Shown piece after piece: positions 4,359 through 64,000 of a stretch of 64,000 nt of DNA. The stretch is from Candidatus Woesearchaeota archaeon. GTDB lineage: Archaea > Nanobdellota > Nanobdellia > Woesearchaeales > JBDRGA01. Position numbers and translations under genes: made by a program. The first letter of the stretch is position 1; each line of letters begins with the position of its first letter. The stretch covers positions 24,723 through 88,722 of the forward strand of contig JBDRGA010000052.1 in the NCBI GenBank assembly GCA_043818175.1, read 5' to 3'. The notes below the pieces were generated by a model. That model saw only the letters and a program-made list of their open reading frames with translations, was not told where the DNA came from and ran no database searches.

Positions 4359-5102
4359 TCAGCCCTTACTTTCAGCCACAATGCCTATGAACATGCTGTT
4401 CTTCGAGAAAAGAAGAATACCTTCAATTTCATCGTATCCACCATATTTGTGCAAGACTCTAAACCCCGCTTTGGAAAGCATAGCTTCAATTTCTTTGAAG
4501 GTATAGACCTGCATGTCCCATACATCCTTCTGCATGGTTAGCTTCATTTTGTTTTGGATGTACACACGCTGGTTCACGTGCATTATCTTTTTTGTTCTGT
4601 CGAGCGTGTTGCTGTTGAATCTGACAAGTTTCGTCTCACCAAAATCTTTGCACGTGTCAATCCACTCTCCGTCTATGAAGTTCTTGTCCAGATACTCAAA
4701 GTTGAATATGTCGAACGCAATTCTTTTCACACCATGCCACCCATCCAACACTTTCTGAAACTCATTGGGAGTCAAGTGTCCTATTGCATTGAACATGCAG
4801 GTGACGATGTCTGGCCTATTCTTTAAGGGAGTCCGTAAGTCTGAAACGTAGAAGCGCACACCAGGATGCTTCTTCCTGGCAACGGAAAGCATTTCAGCAC
4901 TTAGATCAAACCCTTCTACGTCATAACCCCGTTCTTTCAGCTCGCCGGTGAAGTTACCTGTTCCACACGCTGCATCAAGAAGTTTCCTACCTGCAGGCAG
5001 AAGGAAAGGATGAAGTGCTGTTACTGCACTTGCATAAGGAATTATTGAGCCATCTGCGAGGTCATAAACCTGTGCGAACCTTCCGTAGTCAAACTGTTTC
5101 AT
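4359..5102 (-). CDS. class I SAM-dependent methyltransferase
   Basis: Motif I LLDAACGTGNF, followed by an acidic residue (DVEGFDLS). Confidence 0.7.
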   Translation of the reverse strand: MKQFDYGRFAQVYDLADGSIIPYASAVTALHPFLLPAGRKLLDAACGTGNFTGELKERGYDVEGFDLSAEMLSVARKKHPGVRFYVSDLRTPLKNRPDIVTCMFNAIGHLTPNEFQKVLDGWHGVKRIAFDIFNFEYLDKNFIDGEWIDTCKDFGETKLVRFNSNTLDRTKKIMHVNQRVYIQNKMKLTMQKDVWDMQVYTFKEIEAMLSKAGFRVLHKYGGYDEIEGILLFSKNSMFIGIVAESKG

Positions 5103-5139
5103 GAAATAATACGCCAGCTCGTAATAATAAAGTTAGCGG

Positions 5140-6597
5140 TTAAAGACCCAGATTCTCAAGAATGAGCTCTTTCTTAAAAGGAGCAAGGTCATCGTAACCC
5201 TGTCCTGTACCCAAGAACAAAATTGGTTTCTTAGTAACGTAACTTACGCTGACAGCAGCACCACCTTTCTCATCTACGTCGGCCTTTGCCAGTATAATGC
5301 CATCAATTCCCACAGCCTCATCAAACACCTTTGCCTGTTCAACACAGTCGTTTCCAGTAATCGCTTCCCCTACAAACATCTTGAAGTCAGGATTATTAAC
5401 CTTTATGAGCTTCTTGAGCTCTTGCATCAGGTTATCGTTGCTGTGAAGCCTTCCTGCAGTGTCTATTAAAACCACGTCCACGTTCTTTGCCTTGGCATGT
5501 GATATTGCGTCAAAAGCAACAGCAGCAGGGTCAGAACCATAATCGTGCTTAATCATCTTAACGCCCAATTTGTTACAATGTTCTTCCAATTGCTGGATTG
5601 CGGCTGCTCTGAACGTATCTGAAGCTGCTACAACAACACTCATTCCTTTTTCTTGAAATAAGTGGGCGAGCTTTGCAAGTGCGGTCGTTTTTCCAGAGCC
5701 ATTAACACCAATAAATGCAATAATGTAAGGTTTCTTCTTCTTTGCTTCCTTCAATAAGTCGATATGAGTATCTACAAAAAGTTCTTCTATGCTCTTTTGC
5801 AGTCTATCATGAATAACTTCTTCAACGCTCTTTCTCTGAACGCGTCCGGATGTGAGTTCGTCTTTAAGATCCAATTTTATCTTCTCTATTACCTCAACTG
5901 CAACGTTGTTCTCTAGCAAAGCAAGCTCCAACTCCCAGAATATCTCGTTGAATCGTTCATCTGAAAGCTGTATCGTTGTTACTTTCTGCTTGATGAATCC
6001 AAACAAACCTTTCTTCTCAACGCGGCCCTCGGGTTGAATTACTCTTGGTTCGGGTTCAACGGGCTCGTCATGAACTGGCGCCTCTTTTGGCACAATTGCT
6101 TCAGGCTGAACTTTAACCTTTGCTGGCTTTTCAACTTCTCTTGGTTCAACGCGCTTCTTCTCTTGTTCTCGCTTCCCGAATATCTTGCCCAGGAATCCTC
6201 TCTTTTCCTCGTGAACTTTCTTAGGTGGTTCTTTGATTTCATGCGCCTTGACTTCAATTGGTTTCTTTTCTTCTGTTTTAACTGGTTCTATTTTCTTGAC
6301 AACCTGTTCTACCTTAACGAGCTCTGGTTTCTTCGCTTCTTTTACGGGCTCTTGTTTTCTAACTTGAGGCTCAGACTTCTTTGGTATAGATTTAGGAACG
6401 GACTTCTCTACTTTCTTCTCGGGCTCTTTCTTTGCTGGCTTTGGCTTCTCGACTGGTTTCTGTGGTGCTGGCTTCTTCTGAATAATCTCCTTCGCAGGGA
6501 TTCTTTCTTCTATCTCTTCAACTTTAGCATCCTTGGAAACGTCCTTAGTAAGCTTTCCAAGCGCGCCTTTGAGTTTGTCCTTTAGAAACTTGAACAT
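5140..6597 (-). CDS. ftsY: signal recognition particle receptor FtsY
   Basis: SRP GTPase motifs FIGVNGSGKTT, DTAGR and LAKADVD; long K/E/P-rich N-terminal low-complexity region. Confidence 0.9.
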   Translation of the reverse strand: MFKFLKDKLKGALGKLTKDVSKDAKVEEIEERIPAKEIIQKKPAPQKPVEKPKPAKKEPEKKVEKSVPKSIPKKSEPQVRKQEPVKEAKKPELVKVEQVVKKIEPVKTEEKKPIEVKAHEIKEPPKKVHEEKRGFLGKIFGKREQEKKRVEPREVEKPAKVKVQPEAIVPKEAPVHDEPVEPEPRVIQPEGRVEKKGLFGFIKQKVTTIQLSDERFNEIFWELELALLENNVAVEVIEKIKLDLKDELTSGRVQRKSVEEVIHDRLQKSIEELFVDTHIDLLKEAKKKKPYIIAFIGVNGSGKTTALAKLAHLFQEKGMSVVVAASDTFRAAAIQQLEEHCNKLGVKMIKHDYGSDPAAVAFDAISHAKAKNVDVVLIDTAGRLHSNDNLMQELKKLIKVNNPDFKMFVGEAITGNDCVEQAKVFDEAVGIDGIILAKADVDEKGGAAVSVSYVTKKPILFLGTGQGYDDLAPFKKELILENLGL

Positions 6598-11033: not shown

Positions 11034-11203
11034 CGCCGCGGCCCGGATTTGAACCGGGAATCCACGAGGGACTGGTTCGCTCGATTGGCTCTTTGTGGGC
11101 TTGAGCGAAGCGAAACCCACTTCGTCGCCAGTGGCCGAAACCACTGTTCGAGACCAGCGCAATTTCCCGCGTCTTGCGACGTACCGGGTTATGCGACCGC
11201 GGC
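11034..11203 (-). tRNA. tRNA-Ser(CGA) with two introns (D-loop ~19 nt and anticodon-loop ~68 nt)
   Basis: Acceptor GCCGCGG/CCGCGGC with G73. Anticodon stem CTGGT/ACCAG with loop CTCGAA. Long variable arm TCCCTCGTGGATT. T arm CCCGG-TTCAAAT-CCGGG. The 5' part parallels tRNA-Ser(GCT) at 43297. Confidence 0.6.
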
Positions 11204-11553
11204 TTGACCAAGGTCGCGACGGGAACGTTTAGTGACCGTATGCGACCGCGGCTTGATGTTGAGACACCGTGGTGTGTTTATTAATATTCCTTTCAATATT
11301 GAAAATAATGATGTTTAAATACTCGAAGTCACACCATCCTGATTACAATGTGTGTTGGATGTTCAGTACAAAATGCAGAAAGACTTGCCGAGAAAGGAAT
11401 CAATGTAGGCGACATGGGTGCCTACATAACTAGACAAGTCTCTGCAACGACAGAATCAACATATGGCTCAATCAGATCAACACCTGGTTTGGTTTATTGG
11501 AAGTAGGTATTCTGTATAGTCATCATTATAAGTTCAAACCATTTCACAAGACA

Positions 11554-15205: not shown

Positions 15206-15365
15206 TGCCCCCGCCGGGATTCGAACCCGGGTCGCTGCCTTGAGAGGGCAGCATGATTGGTTACCCGACGCTTCACCTTACGCCATGAGTGGGCTTGAGC
15301 TCCGAAGGAGCGAAACCCACATCGTCATTGACGGGCGAAACCGTCACCGGGCACACTACAGGGGC
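15206..15365 (-). tRNA. tRNA-Glu(CTC) with ~85-nt D-loop intron
   Basis: Acceptor GCCCCTG/CGGGGGC with A73. CCAATCATG-CTGCC-CTCTCAA-GGCAG anticodon arm. T arm CCGGG-TTCGAAT-CCCGG. Extra sequence between GTAGTGT and GTCGGGTAACCAATCAT contains the conserved intron module. Confidence 0.7.
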
Positions 15366-15372
15366 GATAATG

Positions 15373-15476
15373 TGAGTCCTGAGGGATTTGAACCCTCGAC
15401 CTATCGGTTTCTGGCCTTGCTCCTTTCAGAGCAATGGTTAAGAGCCGATTGCTCTACCGGACTGAGCTAAGGACCC
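15373..15476 (-). tRNA. tRNA-Lys(CTT) with canonical ~29-nt anticodon-loop intron
   Basis: GGGTCCT-TA-GCTC-AGTCCGGTA-GAGC-A-ATCGG-CTCTTA[intron ACCATTGCTCTGAAAGGAGCAAGGCCAGA]A-CCGAT-AGGTC-GAGGG-TTCAAAT-CCCTC-AGGACTC-A. Confidence 0.8.
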
Positions 15477-24665: not shown

Positions 24666-24965
24666 GCATATGAGAAACAGAATTAGTTATATAAATGTTT
24701 CGACCAGTAACCACTAATAAGTGGCTAATTGGCCGAAACGCTTAGATTCGGCGTTTATATGCCTTGGTGCGTCTTTCTTTCTTTAAACAAATAACGCATC
24801 AAGTTGTCTGGTTTGCGGCGCAAAAGTCGATTCGTGGCTTTTGAGCTTAGTTTTCTTGTTTATAAACAAAGAAGTGCCCCCACGTTTATAAAAATCTTGT
24901 CATCATTTTCAGTAAGAAGTGAGCCCCCAAAAAAAGAAAAATAATTGTCTCAGCCAATGGCTTGA

Positions 24966-25060
24966 CTATTCCAACAAGACGGGCGTTATTGTTGTTGAGG
25001 TTGTTGTTGTCGTTAGCATTGGAGTTGTTGTTGCCAACAGTCCTAACCCACACAGGCCGC
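24966..25060 (-). repeat. DGR template repeat (TR), 95 bp, AAC-codon rich on the minus strand
   Basis: On the minus strand it reads cggcctgtgtgggttaggactgttggcaacaacaactccaatgctaacgacaacaacaacctcaacaacaataacgcccgtcttgttgg. It matches VR at 25410..25504 except at TR adenines. Confidence 0.75.
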
Positions 25061-25269
25061 CTATATTAGCCATTTCACCTTCCTGAAAGCCACCACCATT
25101 TCGTTTCCGTCATGGTTGTATTTTATAGCAACGGTGTTGCCGTAGTGAAATGACGTGTAGTTCCAAGCCACTCTTTCTTTTTGCTGACACCACACATTGC
25201 TGTGTGATGTGGTAGCCGGGACAAGTGAAATAAAATGATAGAATATAAAAGAATTTCGAAAAAATGTTA

Positions 25270-26091
25270 TTACGCTCTGTATAGTTTTGAAACAGCGTCC
25301 AACATACCCGTTCTATTCAAGTCGGGATTGTTGATTACACCCATTATTTGATCGAGAGTAGGTTTAACCAACATACTACCTGATTTTTCGGGCGCAAGCG
25401 GCTCCGCCGCTACCCCAACAAGACGGGCGAGATTGACGTCGAGGCCGTAGCTGACGGTAGCATCGGAGTAGTAGTAGCCAACAGTCCAAACCCACACAGG
25501 CCGCAGGCCTTTTCTACCACTAGGGTAAAAGCCCATTGCATTCCTGTCAAAAATTCTCCCAGTAGTATCTTCAACCATCTTCTTATACGCTACCAACGCT
25601 GATTGGTCGCCTCCAGAAGCAAGATTCCAAAAAGCCGCACGAATTCCATCGGGATTAGCATACACATCCTCTCGCAATGCCCTAGCCGCAGATGGAGGAA
25701 TCACAAGAACACCCGCACCTTCCCTAATCGCATGATACTGATCCCTAGATACTTCCAAACCCCAATCATCCAGCTTTGATTTTGGATTAATTCCTTTAAC
25801 AAGCTCCTTTGCAACAGGATTAGCATTGTACCTAGCAAAAAGCACTTCATCACTACCGGCAGGATCAAGAACAGTGACGTCACCAATTACAACATAATTA
25901 TTCCTCAAAAGCATTCTGTCCGTCACATTTTCGCCCAGTGCTCTCCCGTAAATGAGTTGAGCACCATCCATCGGCTCTCTATTATCCTGCAAAAGCTTAG
26001 GCAGCTCCTTCCTCACTTCACCAAAGAAACTGGCTAGTCTGTCACGAGTACCACTCACTTGAACCTGTTCCCTGAATTGCAAATCGCCCAT
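25270..26091 (-). CDS. DGR variable (target) protein, 273 aa; VR encoded at 25410..25504
   Basis: The C-terminal region RPVWVWTVGYYYSDATVSYGLDVNLARLVG is the VR. The TR-encoded counterpart is RPVWVRTVGNNNSNANDNNNLNNNNARLVG. Confidence 0.7.
   Translation of the reverse strand: MGDLQFREQVQVSGTRDRLASFFGEVRKELPKLLQDNREPMDGAQLIYGRALGENVTDRMLLRNNYVVIGDVTVLDPAGSDEVLFARYNANPVAKELVKGINPKSKLDDWGLEVSRDQYHAIREGAGVLVIPPSAARALREDVYANPDGIRAAFWNLASGGDQSALVAYKKMVEDTTGRIFDRNAMGFYPSGRKGLRPVWVWTVGYYYSDATVSYGLDVNLARLVGVAAEPLAPEKSGSMLVKPTLDQIMGVINNPDLNRTGMLDAVSKLYRA
25410..25504 (-). repeat. DGR variable repeat (VR) inside the target gene
   Basis: 95-bp match to TR with about 22 substitutions, all at positions where the TR (coding strand) has A. 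Confidence 0.75.
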
Positions 26092-26270
26092 TTTTCTTCA
26101 ATCCCCCATACTTTTTTTAGCGTCTGAATTAAATGAATAATACTATTAGGTCAGTTCCAGTATTTAAACCTTTCGTTTATTTAGTTACTCTCTAGTGATT
26201 ACAGTGATGTCGCAGGCGGGGCTTTATAAACAACCAACCAGACTCTCGCACGTAATCCAAACAACACTAA

Positions 26271-27983
26271 ATGCCGACGCCTCCCCCCCCCGACACGACC
26301 TTTTACGACCAGATCTGCTCTTGTAAGAACCTCGAGCTGGCATTCCAAAGAGCAAGAAAGCACAAAACCACCAAGAAATACGTAATTGAATTTGAAGCCG
26401 ACCTTAAAGAAAACCTAGCTCAATTGAGAAATGAACTACTACTGCAAACATACAAGCCAAAACCCTTAGAAACGTTCATTCTACGAGACCCAAAAACAAG
26501 AAAGATTAGCAAATCAGACTTTCGCGACAGAATAATCCACCACGCCATCTGCAACATCATCGAACCCACCTTCGACAAGACATTCATCGACGACTCCTAC
26601 GCAAACAGAATAAAGAAAGGAACGCTCAATGCAATCAAAAGATTCGATAAATTCAAGAAAAAAGCATCACAAAACAACACAATACGATGCTACGTCCTAA
26701 AGGCAGACGTCAAAAGCTACTTCGACTCAGTAGACCACCAAGTACTGCTCAACATATTAGCAAGAAAAATCGATGATAAAAGAGTTCTCTGGCTCATCGA
26801 ACTAATACTCTCCAACCACAAAGCAAAACAAGAAAACAAAGGAATGCCACTAGGCAACCTAACAAGCCAATTTTTCGCCAACGTCTACCTGAACGAATTA
26901 GACCAGTTCGCAAAACACGAGCTAAAAGCAAAATACTACATCAGATACGTAGACGACTTCGTAATCCTACACCAATCAAGAAAACAATTAGAAGATTACA
27001 AAGAAAAAATAGACAACTTTCTCGCAGACACCCTTAAACTCAAGCTTCATCCAGACAAATCACACATCATCAAACTAGAAAAAGGAATCAACTTCTTAGG
27101 ATTCAGAATCTTCTTCCACCACCACTTACTAGTCAAAAGGAACATGAGAAAATTCGAGAAAAAACTCAATAGCATGAAACAAGAATACACAAACGGAAAA
27201 ATAACAAGAGAACAAGTAATTGAGAAATTTGAAGGATGGCTAGCGTATTCCGGCCATGCCAACACGTACAAGTACAGACGAAAAGTCACAAGCAAGTTCA
27301 ACAACCTATTCCCCGTTGAAGAAGACATCAAAGTCACTTCAGTGAAAAAGCACGAAAACTTCAACCACAAAGTCGATTCTAGCAAGATAGAATTCACACA
27401 ACAAAAAACACTACAACTATTCAAGAAAGGAATGCCAATAAAACAAATCGCCAGTCATAGAGGTGTTAAGGAAGGCACAATATGGAAACACGTAGCCAGT
27501 CTCATAGAGCACCACCAACTGAGGCTAAAACAAGTACTTCCGAACGAGAAGATTAAAAAAATTCTGGCAAACATCAAAACGCCAAACGATACACTAAAAG
27601 AAATAAAGGAACGATTACAAGACGAAACCATAACCTACAACGAGATAGAATGCGTACTTGCAAACACCAAGGGTAAACAGAGGAAGAAAAGCACTAACTA
27701 TTGGTTTTCATGGTACCAACGAACAAACTGCCACAGAAAATGCAACAACGACAAAACGCAAAGAGAATCGTGCAGAATAAAGTTCCAACAAATAGTCGCA
27801 AAGACCGCAAGTCTAGAATTCTCTAAAAAAGAATTCCTAAACTTCTTCAATGACCATGTTAACATCTGCATCCTGCCAAACGCTGAAAAGAGGAGATTCG
27901 TTTCCTGGAAGGAATTCAAAGACAAAAAACATGAAAAAGGGAGCCACAAACACGAAAAACCGCCGAGAAAGACCAGTGAATAG
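26271..27983 (+). CDS. reverse transcriptase, DGR-type, with ~190-aa C-terminal extension
   Basis: RT motifs: IRCYVLKADVKSYFDSVDH (motif 3); GMPLGNLTSQFFANVYLNELD (motif 4 with the DGR-diagnostic SQ in place of QG..SP); YIRYVDDFVIL (YVDD); INFLGFRI. Confidence 0.85.
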   Translation: MPTPPPPDTTFYDQICSCKNLELAFQRARKHKTTKKYVIEFEADLKENLAQLRNELLLQTYKPKPLETFILRDPKTRKISKSDFRDRIIHHAICNIIEPTFDKTFIDDSYANRIKKGTLNAIKRFDKFKKKASQNNTIRCYVLKADVKSYFDSVDHQVLLNILARKIDDKRVLWLIELILSNHKAKQENKGMPLGNLTSQFFANVYLNELDQFAKHELKAKYYIRYVDDFVILHQSRKQLEDYKEKIDNFLADTLKLKLHPDKSHIIKLEKGINFLGFRIFFHHHLLVKRNMRKFEKKLNSMKQEYTNGKITREQVIEKFEGWLAYSGHANTYKYRRKVTSKFNNLFPVEEDIKVTSVKKHENFNHKVDSSKIEFTQQKTLQLFKKGMPIKQIASHRGVKEGTIWKHVASLIEHHQLRLKQVLPNEKIKKILANIKTPNDTLKEIKERLQDETITYNEIECVLANTKGKQRKKSTNYWFSWYQRTNCHRKCNNDKTQRESCRIKFQQIVAKTASLEFSKKEFLNFFNDHVNICILPNAEKRRFVSWKEFKDKKHEKGSHKHEKPPRKTSE

Positions 27984-28049: not shown

Positions 28050-28577
28050 GTGGTTTTCACAATGACATTTACCTACAAGAGAGAGCCATTAGAAGAAGAC
28101 GAAATCCTAAATCTAAGGCGTTCTTGCCAGAATTTCGAGGAAGAACTAGTCATCAACATCCTACTGGATTCGGGCATGCGAGTCAGCGAACTAGCTAGCC
28201 TGAGGGAAGAAAACGTTAGCTGGCAGAGGAACTGCTTTACGATAATTGGCAAAGGCAACAAAAGAAGAATCGTACCAATGAGCAAAAGAACAAGACTACT
28301 CTTGCTAGACTGCTTGTCAAAAGAGAATAAGTTCCCATTAGCGATGAGAACTATCCAGAAGTACGTCAAGATCGTGGCAGAGAGAGCAAGGATAAGAAAG
28401 ACAGTAAGCCCCCACGTATTAAGACATACTTTTGCCGTCAGCTATTTGCACAAGGGAGGCAACCTAAGGGCATTGCAAGCAATTCTAGGCCACAGTAGCA
28501 TCACCACGACTGACATTTACTTGAATTACTCAGGCATAAGAGTGCTGGAGGACTTTGAGAAAGTATGGCAAGAGTAA
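28050..28577 (+). CDS. short tyrosine recombinase/integrase (catalytic domain only)
   Basis: HVLRHTFAVSYL...LGHSSITTTDIYLNY gives the R-H-R-Y catalytic residues. Confidence 0.75.
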   Translation: MVFTMTFTYKREPLEEDEILNLRRSCQNFEEELVINILLDSGMRVSELASLREENVSWQRNCFTIIGKGNKRRIVPMSKRTRLLLLDCLSKENKFPLAMRTIQKYVKIVAERARIRKTVSPHVLRHTFAVSYLHKGGNLRALQAILGHSSITTTDIYLNYSGIRVLEDFEKVWQE

Positions 28578-29222: not shown

Positions 29223-30002
29223 TCAATCAAAAATTCCTTGAGTGGTGGCTTGCAACCGTGTCAAGAGCTCGAATTTCTCTTTGAACTCTTCCAAACTCAA
29301 TTCGCCATTTGCAAAACGCAGCTTCAACAATAATATCGGATCATGAACTTCTCCAACAGTTCTTTCTTTCTTCTTCACGCTTCCAAAGGCCATATTGATC
29401 TTATTCTGCAAGTCAGAATTCGTAATGTAAGCATAAATTTGTGTGGTGTGAATGTCAACATGTCCCAAGCTTCGTTGAACATAATACAAGTCAACGCCCT
29501 TCTCAAGAAGATACGTTGCATACGTGTGCCTCAATGTGTGAAAGCTGTAGGCGTATCTTTGCTGACCAATTTCAGTTTTGAATGTTTTGATGCTTAAACC
29601 TGCTTTCAACAGATAGTTTCTGAATTTTAGGCTTAAAATATTGGCAGAGTACTTGTGGCCGAAGCTTGTACAAATCACAAACTCAGAATCTTTTTGCAAG
29701 CGAAACCATTTCTCCAATAAAGGCTTCATCTTGCTTGGCAACATTACAACGCGATCTTTGCTTCCTTTTCCTTCTCGCACAATGACTTTCTCGCTTTCCA
29801 GGTCAACATCCTGCTTTTTCAAGTTGCAAATTTCGCTAATTCGTAGACCGCAAAACAAAGAGACAAGACAGCCCATGAAGACTTGGCTGTCATCGATGGC
29901 CTCGAATAGTGCTAATAATTGTTTCTTGTTGAAAATATTCGGAAGTTTTCGGTTTGTGTTGGGTCGTGCAAAGTTCTTTCCCATTGGTTCACATCCTCGC
30001 AA
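29223..30002 (-). CDS. tyrosine recombinase/integrase (XerC/D-like)
   Basis: GLRISEICNLKKQDV; HTLRHTYATYLLEKGVDLYYVQRSLGHVDIHTTQIYAYI. Confidence 0.85.
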   Translation of the reverse strand: MRGCEPMGKNFARPNTNRKLPNIFNKKQLLALFEAIDDSQVFMGCLVSLFCGLRISEICNLKKQDVDLESEKVIVREGKGSKDRVVMLPSKMKPLLEKWFRLQKDSEFVICTSFGHKYSANILSLKFRNYLLKAGLSIKTFKTEIGQQRYAYSFHTLRHTYATYLLEKGVDLYYVQRSLGHVDIHTTQIYAYITNSDLQNKINMAFGSVKKKERTVGEVHDPILLLKLRFANGELSLEEFKEKFELLTRLQATTQGIFD

Positions 30003-30390: not shown

Positions 30391-30496
30391 CTCGTTTAAA
30401 ACCCAAAAACCCCAAATACTGCCGACACAAAGCCCGGCTCACCAGATGCAGAATATATAAATCTTTCGCGTATTTACCACCAATTAGTAGCACTAG

Positions 30497-30739
30497 TGAC
30501 CCTGGGGGGATTCGAACCCCCGACCTACAGCTCGCTCCTCGTTTTCTCGATTGGGGGGACTTCAATCCGCAGATTGAATGTCGCCCATCGGGATCAAGGA
30601 ACGAAACCCTTGACCGTTAGGAGGCTGCCGCGCTATATGCCCAAGGTCTGCCCCTAGTTGAATGGGCTTGAGCTCCAGGGGAGCGAAACCCATATCGGGA
30701 TCAAGGAACGAAACCCTTGCCAGGCTGCGCTACAGGGCC
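30497..30739 (-). tRNA. tRNA-Arg(CCT) with two long introns (D-loop ~80 nt and anticodon-loop ~85 nt)
   Basis: Acceptor GGCCCTG/CAGGGTC with A73. GCGC-AGCCTGG...ATA-GCGC D arm interrupted. GCAGC-CTCCTA[intron]A-GCTGT anticodon arm. AGGTC variable loop. GGGGG-TTCGAAT-CCCCC T arm. Confidence 0.7.
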
Positions 30740-63266: not shown

Positions 63267-63549
63267 GTAGGACCAATATCATAGCTAGCATATAATCTTT
63301 TTCTTAGGCCGACTAATGTCAAGCTGGTTCACCGACCAAAACGCTTATAAAGGGGTCGCGGTTCCACCTGATACATCGCCACCAAAGGAACCCGCTCCAA
63401 GTCAGCGAGCGAGTATTTCTAAGCGAGAAAAAATGAGTGCTTGAAGTAATACTTCATGCATGAGGGAATCACGAATACGAAAATTGACGTTATAGAAAGT
63501 TCAGCCGAAGAAATTTACGGAAATCATACCGTAATCGCGAAGTACAGCG

Positions 63550-64000
<451 letters not shown>

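Follow-up and report, generated by a model that had tools for sequence, protein, structure and literature searches.

A sequence of about 55 nucleotides (nt) that folds into two hairpins, here called E, is common to introns of three different tRNA genes, tRNA-Ser(CGA), tRNA-Glu(CTC), and tRNA-Arg(CCT), in a 64,000-nt stretch of DNA from a Woesearchaeota archaeon. We refer to this whole stretch as the window. At a probability that we put at roughly 55%, E represents a family of non-autonomous mobile elements of Woesearchaeota and Nanoarchaeota that survives in RNA genes by being removed as a bulge-helix-bulge (BHB) intron. Copies of the same structure were found at tRNA, rRNA, and protein-gene sites of related archaea, where about a third of them are bracketed by direct repeats.

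The core of E, GGGTTTCGC-N(0-20)-GCTCAAGCCC, is found at exactly three places in the window, always on the minus strand (11097-11118, 15291-15318, and 30664-30691), whereas none was expected from 100 shuffles; each module contains the motif GGTTTCG in two copies that are always 25 nt apart. E consists of hairpin 1 (a stem of 5 to 7 bp), an A/C-rich and T-poor linker of 8 to 11 nt, hairpin 2 (R-Y-GGGUUU-C-GC-loop-GC-UC-AAGCCC-R-Y), and a variable tail. A covariance model (R1) built from 24 copies of E and run on the 64-kb window assigned 64.4, 60.4, and 59.9 bits to the three full copies and found nothing else credible besides these and a diverged fourth copy. A preliminary description of this DNA, made from the sequence alone, had proposed a module common to the three introns and had called for such a model; the exact cores and the model bear the proposal out. 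All of the window copies, three full and one partial, lie in tRNA introns on the tRNA-sense strand, which is the minus strand throughout. Copy 1 (11095-11146; 64.4 bits) comprises hairpin 1 at 11129-11146, the linker at 11121-11128, and hairpin 2 at 11095-11120, and its minimum free energy (MFE) structure is the two hairpins. In copy 2 (15289-15346; 60.4 bits; MFE z-score, -3.69), these parts lie at 15330-15345, 15321-15329, and 15289-15320, and in copy 3 (30662-30719; 59.9 bits; z-score, -3.05), they lie at 30702-30719, 30694-30701, and 30662-30693.

Copy 4 (30554-30612; 20.9 bits; E value, 0.0011) is a diverged variant in the second intron of tRNA-Arg. Its hairpin 1 and linker are identical to those of copy 3 over 26 nt, while its hairpin 2 has been swapped for a different hairpin closed by GGG...CCC. 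A repeat within tRNA-Arg had been noticed previously as a 25-nt segment; the repeat is present, at 30587-30612 and 30694-30719, although its length is 26 nt and the position first given for one copy (30593-30618) was off by ~6 nt. Neither the fetched loci nor viral contigs contained a match to the variant terminal hairpin. Part of this hairpin (30552-30568) is 76% identical over 17 nt to the T-arm of the same tRNA (30503-30519), 49 nt downstream, a likeness that may be due to chance or may be the relic of an older duplication.

Base pairing within E was evaluated in two alignments, A1 with 24 copies from the window and from genomes and A2 with 57 distinct metagenomic copies. In both, 98 to 99% of the cells pair, compensatory double changes are found at all five hairpin-1 pairs, and the two outer pairs of hairpin 2 covary. 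None of 500 shuffles reached the observed covariation, and the signal collapsed in slid registers. The sequence of hairpin 1 thus varies across the family while its pairing is kept. The MFE fold is exactly two hairpins, with z-scores of -1.75 to -3.69. The U.G pair of hairpin 2 is invariant; it and the G.U pairs of hairpin 1 can form on the tRNA-sense strand alone, so the folded molecule is that strand, either as RNA or as single-stranded DNA.

The only unpaired residues of the internal loop of hairpin 2 are a C opposite UC. The symmetric TTTC/TCAA internal loop of the preliminary description therefore holds insofar as a loop exists, but three of the four U's pair (U.G, U-A, and U-A), leaving a 1x2 loop. 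A kink-turn, C/D, or H/ACA motif was rejected, since this loop lacks G.A and there are no conserved boxes: neither C/D nor H/ACA boxes are conserved in alignment A1, and Rfam gave no snoRNA match at E. A BHB inside hairpin 2 was likewise rejected, as the unpaired stretches face each other and are not staggered by 4 bp. Searches of Rfam 15 at gathering and permissive thresholds yielded no family for E, self-cleaving ribozymes included. A match of Hammerhead_HH9 to antisense hairpin 2 (15289-15326, plus strand) scored 10.5 bits against a threshold of 52 (E value, 4.7). It runs UGAG-stem-CGAAAC...GUC, the essential G5 and A6 of the CUGAUGA core are absent, and it is therefore not a ribozyme.

The three tRNA loci were read on the minus strand. 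Splice sites were placed by the BHB rule (a helix of 4 bp in which each strand has a 3-nt bulge on its 3' side, cut after the second bulge nucleotide), using BHB scoring together with direct reading of the sequence. ARAGORN finds no tRNA in the window when introns are disallowed; when introns are allowed, it finds tRNA-Lys(CTT) and miscalls the tRNA-Arg locus as Pro. The spliced sequences, in turn, are called tRNA-Ser(cga), tRNA-Glu(ctc), and tRNA-Arg(cct). Because all three are recognized as tRNAs once the introns are removed, E is intron and not exon, as had been supposed at the outset.

The tRNA-Ser gene (11034-11203, counted from the second copy of a 5' repeat and called by ARAGORN on the spliced product) contains two introns. 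In the notation used here, bulges are given in square brackets and cuts are marked by a caret. A D-loop mini-intron of 19 nt (11164-11182) lacks the module and has the strict BHB CCCG[GU^A]CGUC...GACGCGGG[AA^A] (score, 4,3,4); the ARAGORN call requires its removal. The canonical 37/38 intron of 69 nt (11078-11146) carries E at its 5' end, and its BHB, from sequence reading, has the central helix CUCG/CGAG, the bulges AA^C and CG^A, and the outer helix CUGGU/ACCAG. The tRNA-Glu gene (15206-15365; ARAGORN on the spliced sequence, with an Rfam tRNA half-hit at 15214-15277) lies 6 nt downstream of tRNA-Lys(CTT) (15372-15476). Its D-loop intron of 86 nt, located after G19 (15261-15346), carries E and has the relaxed BHB GCCC[GG^U]GACG...CGUCGGGU[AA^C]. 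Both introns of the tRNA-Arg gene (30497-30739; ARAGORN on the spliced sequence) carry E, the second only in part. Intron 1, of 83 nt, lies in the D-loop after G19 (30637-30719; BHB GCCU[GG^C]AAGG...CCUUGGGC[AU^A]), and upon its removal the D-loop becomes AGCCUGGAUA. Intron 2, of 85 nt, lies at the canonical position 37/38 (30533-30617; BHB CUCC[UA^A]...GGAG[CG^A]GCUGU).

The first nucleotide of E is the first nucleotide of the intron in three of these four introns, and in tRNA-Arg intron 2, E starts 5 nt in. All four E-containing introns have the central 4-bp helix and both bulges. In several of them the flanking helices are of a relaxed form, with an inner helix of 1 bp in the tRNA-Ser 37/38 intron, an outer helix of 1 bp in tRNA-Arg intron 1, and no outer helix in tRNA-Glu, and such relaxed forms would need an endonuclease of broad specificity. 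Judged by sequence, the E-containing introns therefore qualify as BHB tRNA introns, and the BHB prediction that the preliminary description had called for gives strict or relaxed motifs at the exon-intron junctions. Similar introns in different tRNAs and at different positions of one genome are the mark of transposed introns. This pattern is seen here at position 37/38 of tRNA-Ser and tRNA-Arg and after G19 of tRNA-Glu and tRNA-Arg, so that the earlier claim of a module at both canonical and D-loop positions stands.

Two of the tRNA genes have additional peculiarities. In tRNA-Glu, position 14 is G instead of the near-universal A (15346-15365; D-loop, GCCCGGCCAA) in the sole splice model that yields a tRNA, and its BHB has no outer helix; this may point to an impaired gene or to a highly permissive endonuclease. 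In tRNA-Ser, the 5' end of the gene together with 3 to 4 upstream nt forms exact 18-nt direct repeats (11190-11207 and 11239-11256, minus strand), separated by a spacer of 31 nt that contains no hairpin 2. Upstream of the first repeat copy, at a distance of 24 nt, is a TATA-like ATTAATAAA; the other tRNA genes are alike in this respect, and the primary transcript probably starts near 11252. The first copy could be either a 5' leader hairpin, as the copy and the spacer together are predicted to form a hairpin of their own, or exon 1 of a third intron; a weak BHB is possible at the repeat through the palindrome CGCG. The spacer motif GTCACTAAACGTTCC (11222-11236) recurs, one base shorter, at 5191-5204 of one other locus (L203), within an insert in hairpin 1 of an E copy that lies upstream of a tRNA; the rest of the fetched DNA lacks it. 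This motif may represent another type of mini-insert.

Copies of E are widespread in related archaea (loci fetched from genomes and metagenomes are labeled L followed by a number). Exact copies of hairpin 2 were found at ~110 non-redundant loci in Woesearchaeota and Nanoarchaeota genomes and metagenomes, and a scan of one genome per species matched at least 119 loci. Matches with a long gap fall in GC-rich bacteria at approximately the number expected by chance (596 Gb x 2 strands x 21 gap lengths / 4^19 = ~90). In contrast, those with a loop of 3 to 9 nt are almost all in Woesearchaeota, Nanoarchaeota/Nanobdellota, and unclassified members of DPANN, the superphylum that includes Woesearchaeota; the complete genome AR15 is among them. 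Some short-loop matches fall in bins labeled Methanosarcinales, and those bins share genes with the DPANN loci. A stricter 23-base pattern retrieved 85 metagenomic loci, with less than one chance match expected. Most of the source sequences are metagenome-assembled genomes (MAGs). A link to viruses or plasmids was rejected: six IMG/VR matches are a chance number, and the one inspected is a bacterial contig resembling a phage or an integrative and conjugative element. No protein family recurs beside E, transposases and reverse transcriptases included, which fits a non-autonomous element. We found no description of E in the searchable literature. The window itself is archaeal, with the 5' part of a 16S rRNA gene at 63549-64000 that is 89% identical to that of the nearest fetched locus. 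Its CDC48 is 100% identical to a protein of a 'Candidatus Woesearchaeota archaeon' MAG at NCBI, and the next relatives are only ~67% identical. CDC48 synteny was used to seek unbiased orthologous loci, but the tRNAs are not syntenic with CDC48 in the relatives.

Outside the window, E is found in the tRNA-sense orientation in D-loop, anticodon-loop, and especially T-loop introns of many tRNAs of other Woesearchaeota and Nanoarchaeota. Classification of contexts by a tRNA hidden Markov model, which is too insensitive for short exon pieces, detected 40 of 119 contexts as tRNA associated. Where the BHBs are best, hairpin 1 begins 0 to 2 nt past the 5' splice site (L017, score 4,5,5; L132, 4,4,5; L129, 4,5,3), and the same holds for L084 and L109, which are also among the best-defined introns. 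In T-loop introns of several different tRNAs, the whole intron is shared, including the tail, which repeats the 3' strand of hairpin 1. In 23S rRNA, E is sense in L201 and antisense in L200, the latter at 5084-5140 within an insertion of ~95 nt near the peptidyl-transferase region. Antisense E also lies inside or beside group I introns of the 23S rRNA of related archaea (L153, 774-1099; L136, 2202-2494). Further copies are intergenic or lie next to the termini of tRNA and protein genes in either orientation. For instance, a small histone-fold-like gene has antisense E at its 3' end in AR15 (L068) and sense E abutting its stop codon in another genome (L127). Arrays and nested forms occur as well (L203, 4950-5420; L103, 275-451; L140, 2040-2420; L144; and L205). 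In L203 and L103, tandem [repeat-E]n arrays are present, the unit being a tRNA 5' fragment, a promoter-like spacer, and E, upstream of the intact tRNA; the hairpin-2 core of the oldest orphan copy in L203 carries two substitutions. In some array or nested versions, hairpin 2 is preceded by two or three hairpins that resemble hairpin 1, and one tRNA is flanked by E on both sides.

Exact direct repeats spanning E were counted for 104 non-redundant copies and, in the same loci, for 1,725 control positions. A repeat of 12 nt or more was present at 31% of the copies versus 0.5% of the controls, and one of 16 nt or more was present at 22% versus 0.1%. The flanking repeats vary in length, the shortest being 10 nt and the longest exceeding 40 nt. 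Hairpin 1 adjoins the upstream repeat copy, in some cases with a short degenerate zone between them, and the downstream copy follows a tail of 0 to 54 nt. Where E is sense beside a tRNA, the repeat extends from a few nt upstream of the tRNA to the D-loop (L025, L018, L040, L062, L089, L172, L176, and L134); where it is antisense, the repeat extends from the T-loop to a few nt past the 3' end (L003, L007, L073, L090, L142, L149, L154, L177, and L190). One repeat copy is continuous with the intact tRNA and the other is an orphan, so that the interrupted gene end is regenerated. In L025, L018, L040, L089, L090, and L073, the repeats extend beyond the tRNA ends into non-tRNA sequence, and at the same tRNA site in different genomes, lineage-specific leader nucleotides are present in both repeat copies (L172 versus L176). 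At protein genes, the repeat spans the ribosome-binding site or the start codon and first codons of a HAD hydrolase (L168), a transketolase (L165), and Rrp41 (L161 and L146), and in AR15 (L068), it consists of the last six codons and the stop codon of the histone-fold-like gene. The non-genic nucleotides in the repeats and the two orientations indicate a feature of the DNA rather than a requirement of RNA structure. We interpret the flanking repeats as target-site duplications. Target-primed and template-switch mechanisms yield duplications of variable length and are, by analogy, candidate origins for these repeats.

In the explanation that we favor, E would insert into DNA in either orientation, usually duplicating a target of variable length (~10 to 40 bp), and only harmless insertions would persist. 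One kind would be intergenic. Another would lie within ~20 nt of a gene end, where the duplication would regenerate the complete end of the tRNA or open reading frame (ORF). Selection would keep insertions this close to the end because only those are healed by a duplication of typical length, which matches the bias toward D-loops and T-loops and toward the first or last few codons of ORFs. A third kind, to which the window copies would belong, would lie inside tRNA or rRNA genes and be excisable from the transcript by the archaeal splicing endonuclease. With E starting at the 5' splice site, the first four nt of hairpin 1 would pair with the 3' end of the intron to form the BHB inner helix, the four exon nt before the 5' bulge would pair with the intron tail, and endonuclease and ligase would restore tRNA-Ser, tRNA-Glu, and tRNA-Arg. 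We infer that E introns are probably spliced in cells. The mobile form would be a single-stranded intermediate of the sense strand, as RNA or single-stranded DNA, and hairpin 2 is a putative recognition site of the mobilizing enzyme. A bolder version, which we hold tentatively and at somewhat less than even odds, is that E is an archaeal counterpart of introners whose insertion directly creates BHB introns in tRNA and rRNA genes, probably via such an intermediate, the repeat-flanked copies at gene termini being fresh insertions.

The inner helix proposed above competes with hairpin 1. In tRNA-Arg intron 1 and in tRNA-Glu, the first four nt of hairpin 1 (AAGG and GACG) pair with a repeat of the hairpin's own 3' strand (CCUU and CGUC), located close to the end of the intron. 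As the 5' strand is shared, hairpin 1 and the BHB inner helix are mutually exclusive. Where the 5' strand changes, each of the two partners changes with it, as is seen in L046 and L109 too. For pre-tRNA-Glu, structure prediction favors the long-range pairing and places hairpin 2 at the tip. The two alternative pairings could be a conformational switch, or they could be the cheapest way for a new insert to obtain an inner helix.

Several observations weigh against a mobile element spliced out as an intron. Over all copies, strict BHB scores beside E are only modestly above those of shuffled controls. Where the orphan and functional repeat copies differ in coding sequence (L068, L168, and L165), all eight of eight differences are synonymous, including one TAA/TGA stop, which is not predicted if one copy is a neutral orphan. 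None of the four window copies has a significant residual target duplication (local alignment versus shuffles; P = 0.27 to 0.82), and the degenerate repeats seen by eye in tRNA-Arg intron 1 and in tRNA-Glu did not prove significant in this comparison. Mobility is consequently argued from relatives whose CDC48 is only ~67% identical. To our knowledge, no prokaryotic transposase family accounts for duplications that vary this much in length (10 to over 40 nt). Nearly all copies were retrieved by an exact hairpin-2 pattern, so its invariance is partly due to ascertainment and diverged copies are undersampled; that hairpin 2 can change is seen in the decayed orphan of L203 and in the swapped hairpin of tRNA-Arg intron 2. 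Lastly, no mobilizing enzyme was found, the sole reverse transcriptase of the window belonging to a diversity-generating retroelement (DGR).

Some of the same features would suit a structured RNA domain that is under selection in pre-tRNA introns, leaders, and untranslated regions and whose spread reflects recruitment, not selfish mobility, which we consider unlikely. Such a domain might bind a factor for processing, ligation, or circularization, or it might serve as a switch for the timing of splicing. Selection of this kind would be consistent with a hairpin 2 that is identical across lineages whose CDC48 is only ~65% identical, with hairpin-1 pairing kept by compensatory changes, and with a strand-specific fold containing G.U pairs. 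It would also suit the co-variation of the hairpin-1 5' strand with two partners, its own 3' strand and the intron 3' end (AAGG/CCUU/CCUU in tRNA-Arg, GACG/CGUC/CGUC in tRNA-Glu, and AGCU or AGCC with AGCU or GGUU in L046 and L109). However, a function in cis in pre-tRNA makes no sense for E antisense to tRNA, rRNA, and protein genes or inside group I introns, and the invariance of hairpin 2 stems in part from how copies were retrieved. Orphan copies decay (L203), tRNA-Arg intron 2 has replaced hairpin 2 by an unrelated hairpin, and the tRNA-Lys intron and the tRNA-Ser mini-intron have good BHBs and no E.

It is less probable still that the introns are older than E and that a mobile E merely landed in existing BHB introns as neutral safe sites. 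E does lie inside 23S group I introns and, antisense, in a 23S insertion; the nested, multi-hairpin versions indicate that E-like pieces insert into each other; and the long tails of the window introns are unrelated to each other. Random landing, though, would not be expected to place hairpin 1 within 0 to 2 nt of the 5' splice site in three of the four window introns and in L017, L129, L132, L084, and L109, nor does it agree with whole introns, tail included, being homologous between different tRNAs. That there was no recent mobility at all, but only ancient common intron ancestry or gene conversion within one genome, appears very improbable. While the exact 26-nt identity of the two tRNA-Arg introns resembles conversion or local duplication, this account leaves unexplained the repeat-flanked copies at unrelated tRNA, rRNA, and protein-gene sites in both orientations, as well as the lineage-specific leader nucleotides in both repeat copies (L172 versus L176). 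The preliminary description suggested intron transposition or a small mobile or functional RNA; mobility is favored by the varied sites and the flanking repeats, on the evidence of the relatives rather than of the window alone. There is a substantial chance that E is a genuine intron-generating mobile element.

The closest precedent is in Thermoproteales, in which similar introns in different tRNAs, at canonical and noncanonical positions, point to movement or gain of BHB introns (Fujishima et al. 2010, as relayed in PMC4033280). The likeness to E lies in similar introns in different tRNA species and positions of one genome. In contrast to that case, E belongs to Woesearchaeota and Nanoarchaeota, is a defined two-hairpin module with covariation, also occupies rRNA, gene ends, and intergenic DNA on both strands, and has flanking direct repeats. 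In a model for Caldiarchaeum (Sugahara et al. 2012, PMC3293823), an integrating element disrupts a tRNA gene and leaves a duplicated tRNA fragment and a new intron. There, too, a direct repeat of a tRNA 5' fragment flanks the insert and is tied to intron gain; that insert, however, is 1.8 kb long with a putative recombinase, whereas E is ~60 to 100 nt, is non-coding, and has no recurring neighbor gene. Eukaryotic introners are mobile spliceosomal introns derived from transposons, non-autonomous, with target-site duplications and lineage-specific bursts. E would resemble them in creating an intron by insertion and in its proposed target-site duplications. Introners differ in being removed by the spliceosome and in having terminal inverted repeats and duplications of fixed length; E, for which removal by the BHB endonuclease is proposed, has neither inverted repeats nor a fixed duplication length.

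Short interspersed nuclear elements (SINEs) and non-long-terminal-repeat retroposons, which move by target-primed reverse transcription, resemble E in that their duplications vary in length, the 5' end is precise, the 3' tail is variable and mildly rich in A, the 3' stem-loop is conserved, and the fold is strand specific and RNA-like. The A content of the E tail is 0.40 to 0.56 versus a background of 0.31, a weak enrichment, and no reverse transcriptase is linked to E. We know of no SINE-like system in archaea. Rickettsia palindromic elements, repetitive extragenic palindromes (REPs) with their REP-associated tyrosine transposases (RAYTs), and palindrome-associated transposable elements derived from IS200/IS605 are, like E, short structured non-coding repeats that invade genes, RNA genes included. 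IS200-type elements have strand-specific imperfect hairpins near their ends. All of these palindromic elements insert without long target duplications. E lacks terminal inverted repeats, and neither a TnpA nor a RAYT gene was seen beside it. An IS200/IS605- or REP-type element was rejected, given the long flanking repeats at 31% of copies and the lack of a recurring transposase nearby. E is not a miniature inverted-repeat transposable element either, as its ends are hairpin 1 and a variable tail rather than inverted termini and its repeats range from 10 to more than 40 nt. What is new in E compared with the known mobile archaeal introns is a tiny, defined, structured non-coding unit in another phylum that extends beyond tRNA introns and bears signatures of insertion.

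The window contains a complete DGR at 24966-27983. Its template repeat (24966-25060) is 81% identical to the variable repeat (25410-25504), which lies near the 3' end of an ORF at 25270-26091 (minus strand), and where the two differ, the template has T on the plus strand (A on the coding strand). An Rfam RT-16 RNA (25061-25221, 66 bits) lies between the two repeats, and from this position RT-16 looks like an RNA element just 5' of the template repeat of the DGR. The reverse transcriptase of the DGR is a divergent RVT_1+HTH_40 protein (26271-27983, plus strand). A link between E and this enzyme was rejected, because the DGR has its own pair of template and variable repeats and nothing resembling E was detected there by the covariance model. 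Two imperfect copies of a 38-nt direct repeat (76% identical; 24688-24725 and 30454-30491), the second of which is immediately 3' of tRNA-Arg, bracket ~5.8 kb that include the DGR, two fragments of XerA-like tyrosine recombinases (28050-28577, plus strand, and 29223-30002, minus strand), and a MobC-like ORF. This stretch is possibly an integrated element beside tRNA-Arg. A weak match to a C/D-box snoRNA (snoZ157, 25.8 bits; E value, 0.79) was noted at 41798-41884 on the minus strand.

The origin and movement of archaeal tRNA introns are an open question. Transposition in Thermoproteales was deduced from sequence similarity alone, and a 2014 review stated that snapshots of the insertion event were still to be collected (PMC4033280). 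E is a concrete and searchable element. Some copies are established introns, and others, flanked by repeats at tRNA, rRNA, and protein-gene sites, look like recent insertions. Standard tools overlook the tRNA genes that it interrupts, and the tRNAs reported as "missing" from DPANN genomes may in part be genes disrupted by E. If E is indeed an archaeal counterpart of introners, it would provide the first mechanistic handle on the gain and transposition of archaeal tRNA introns.

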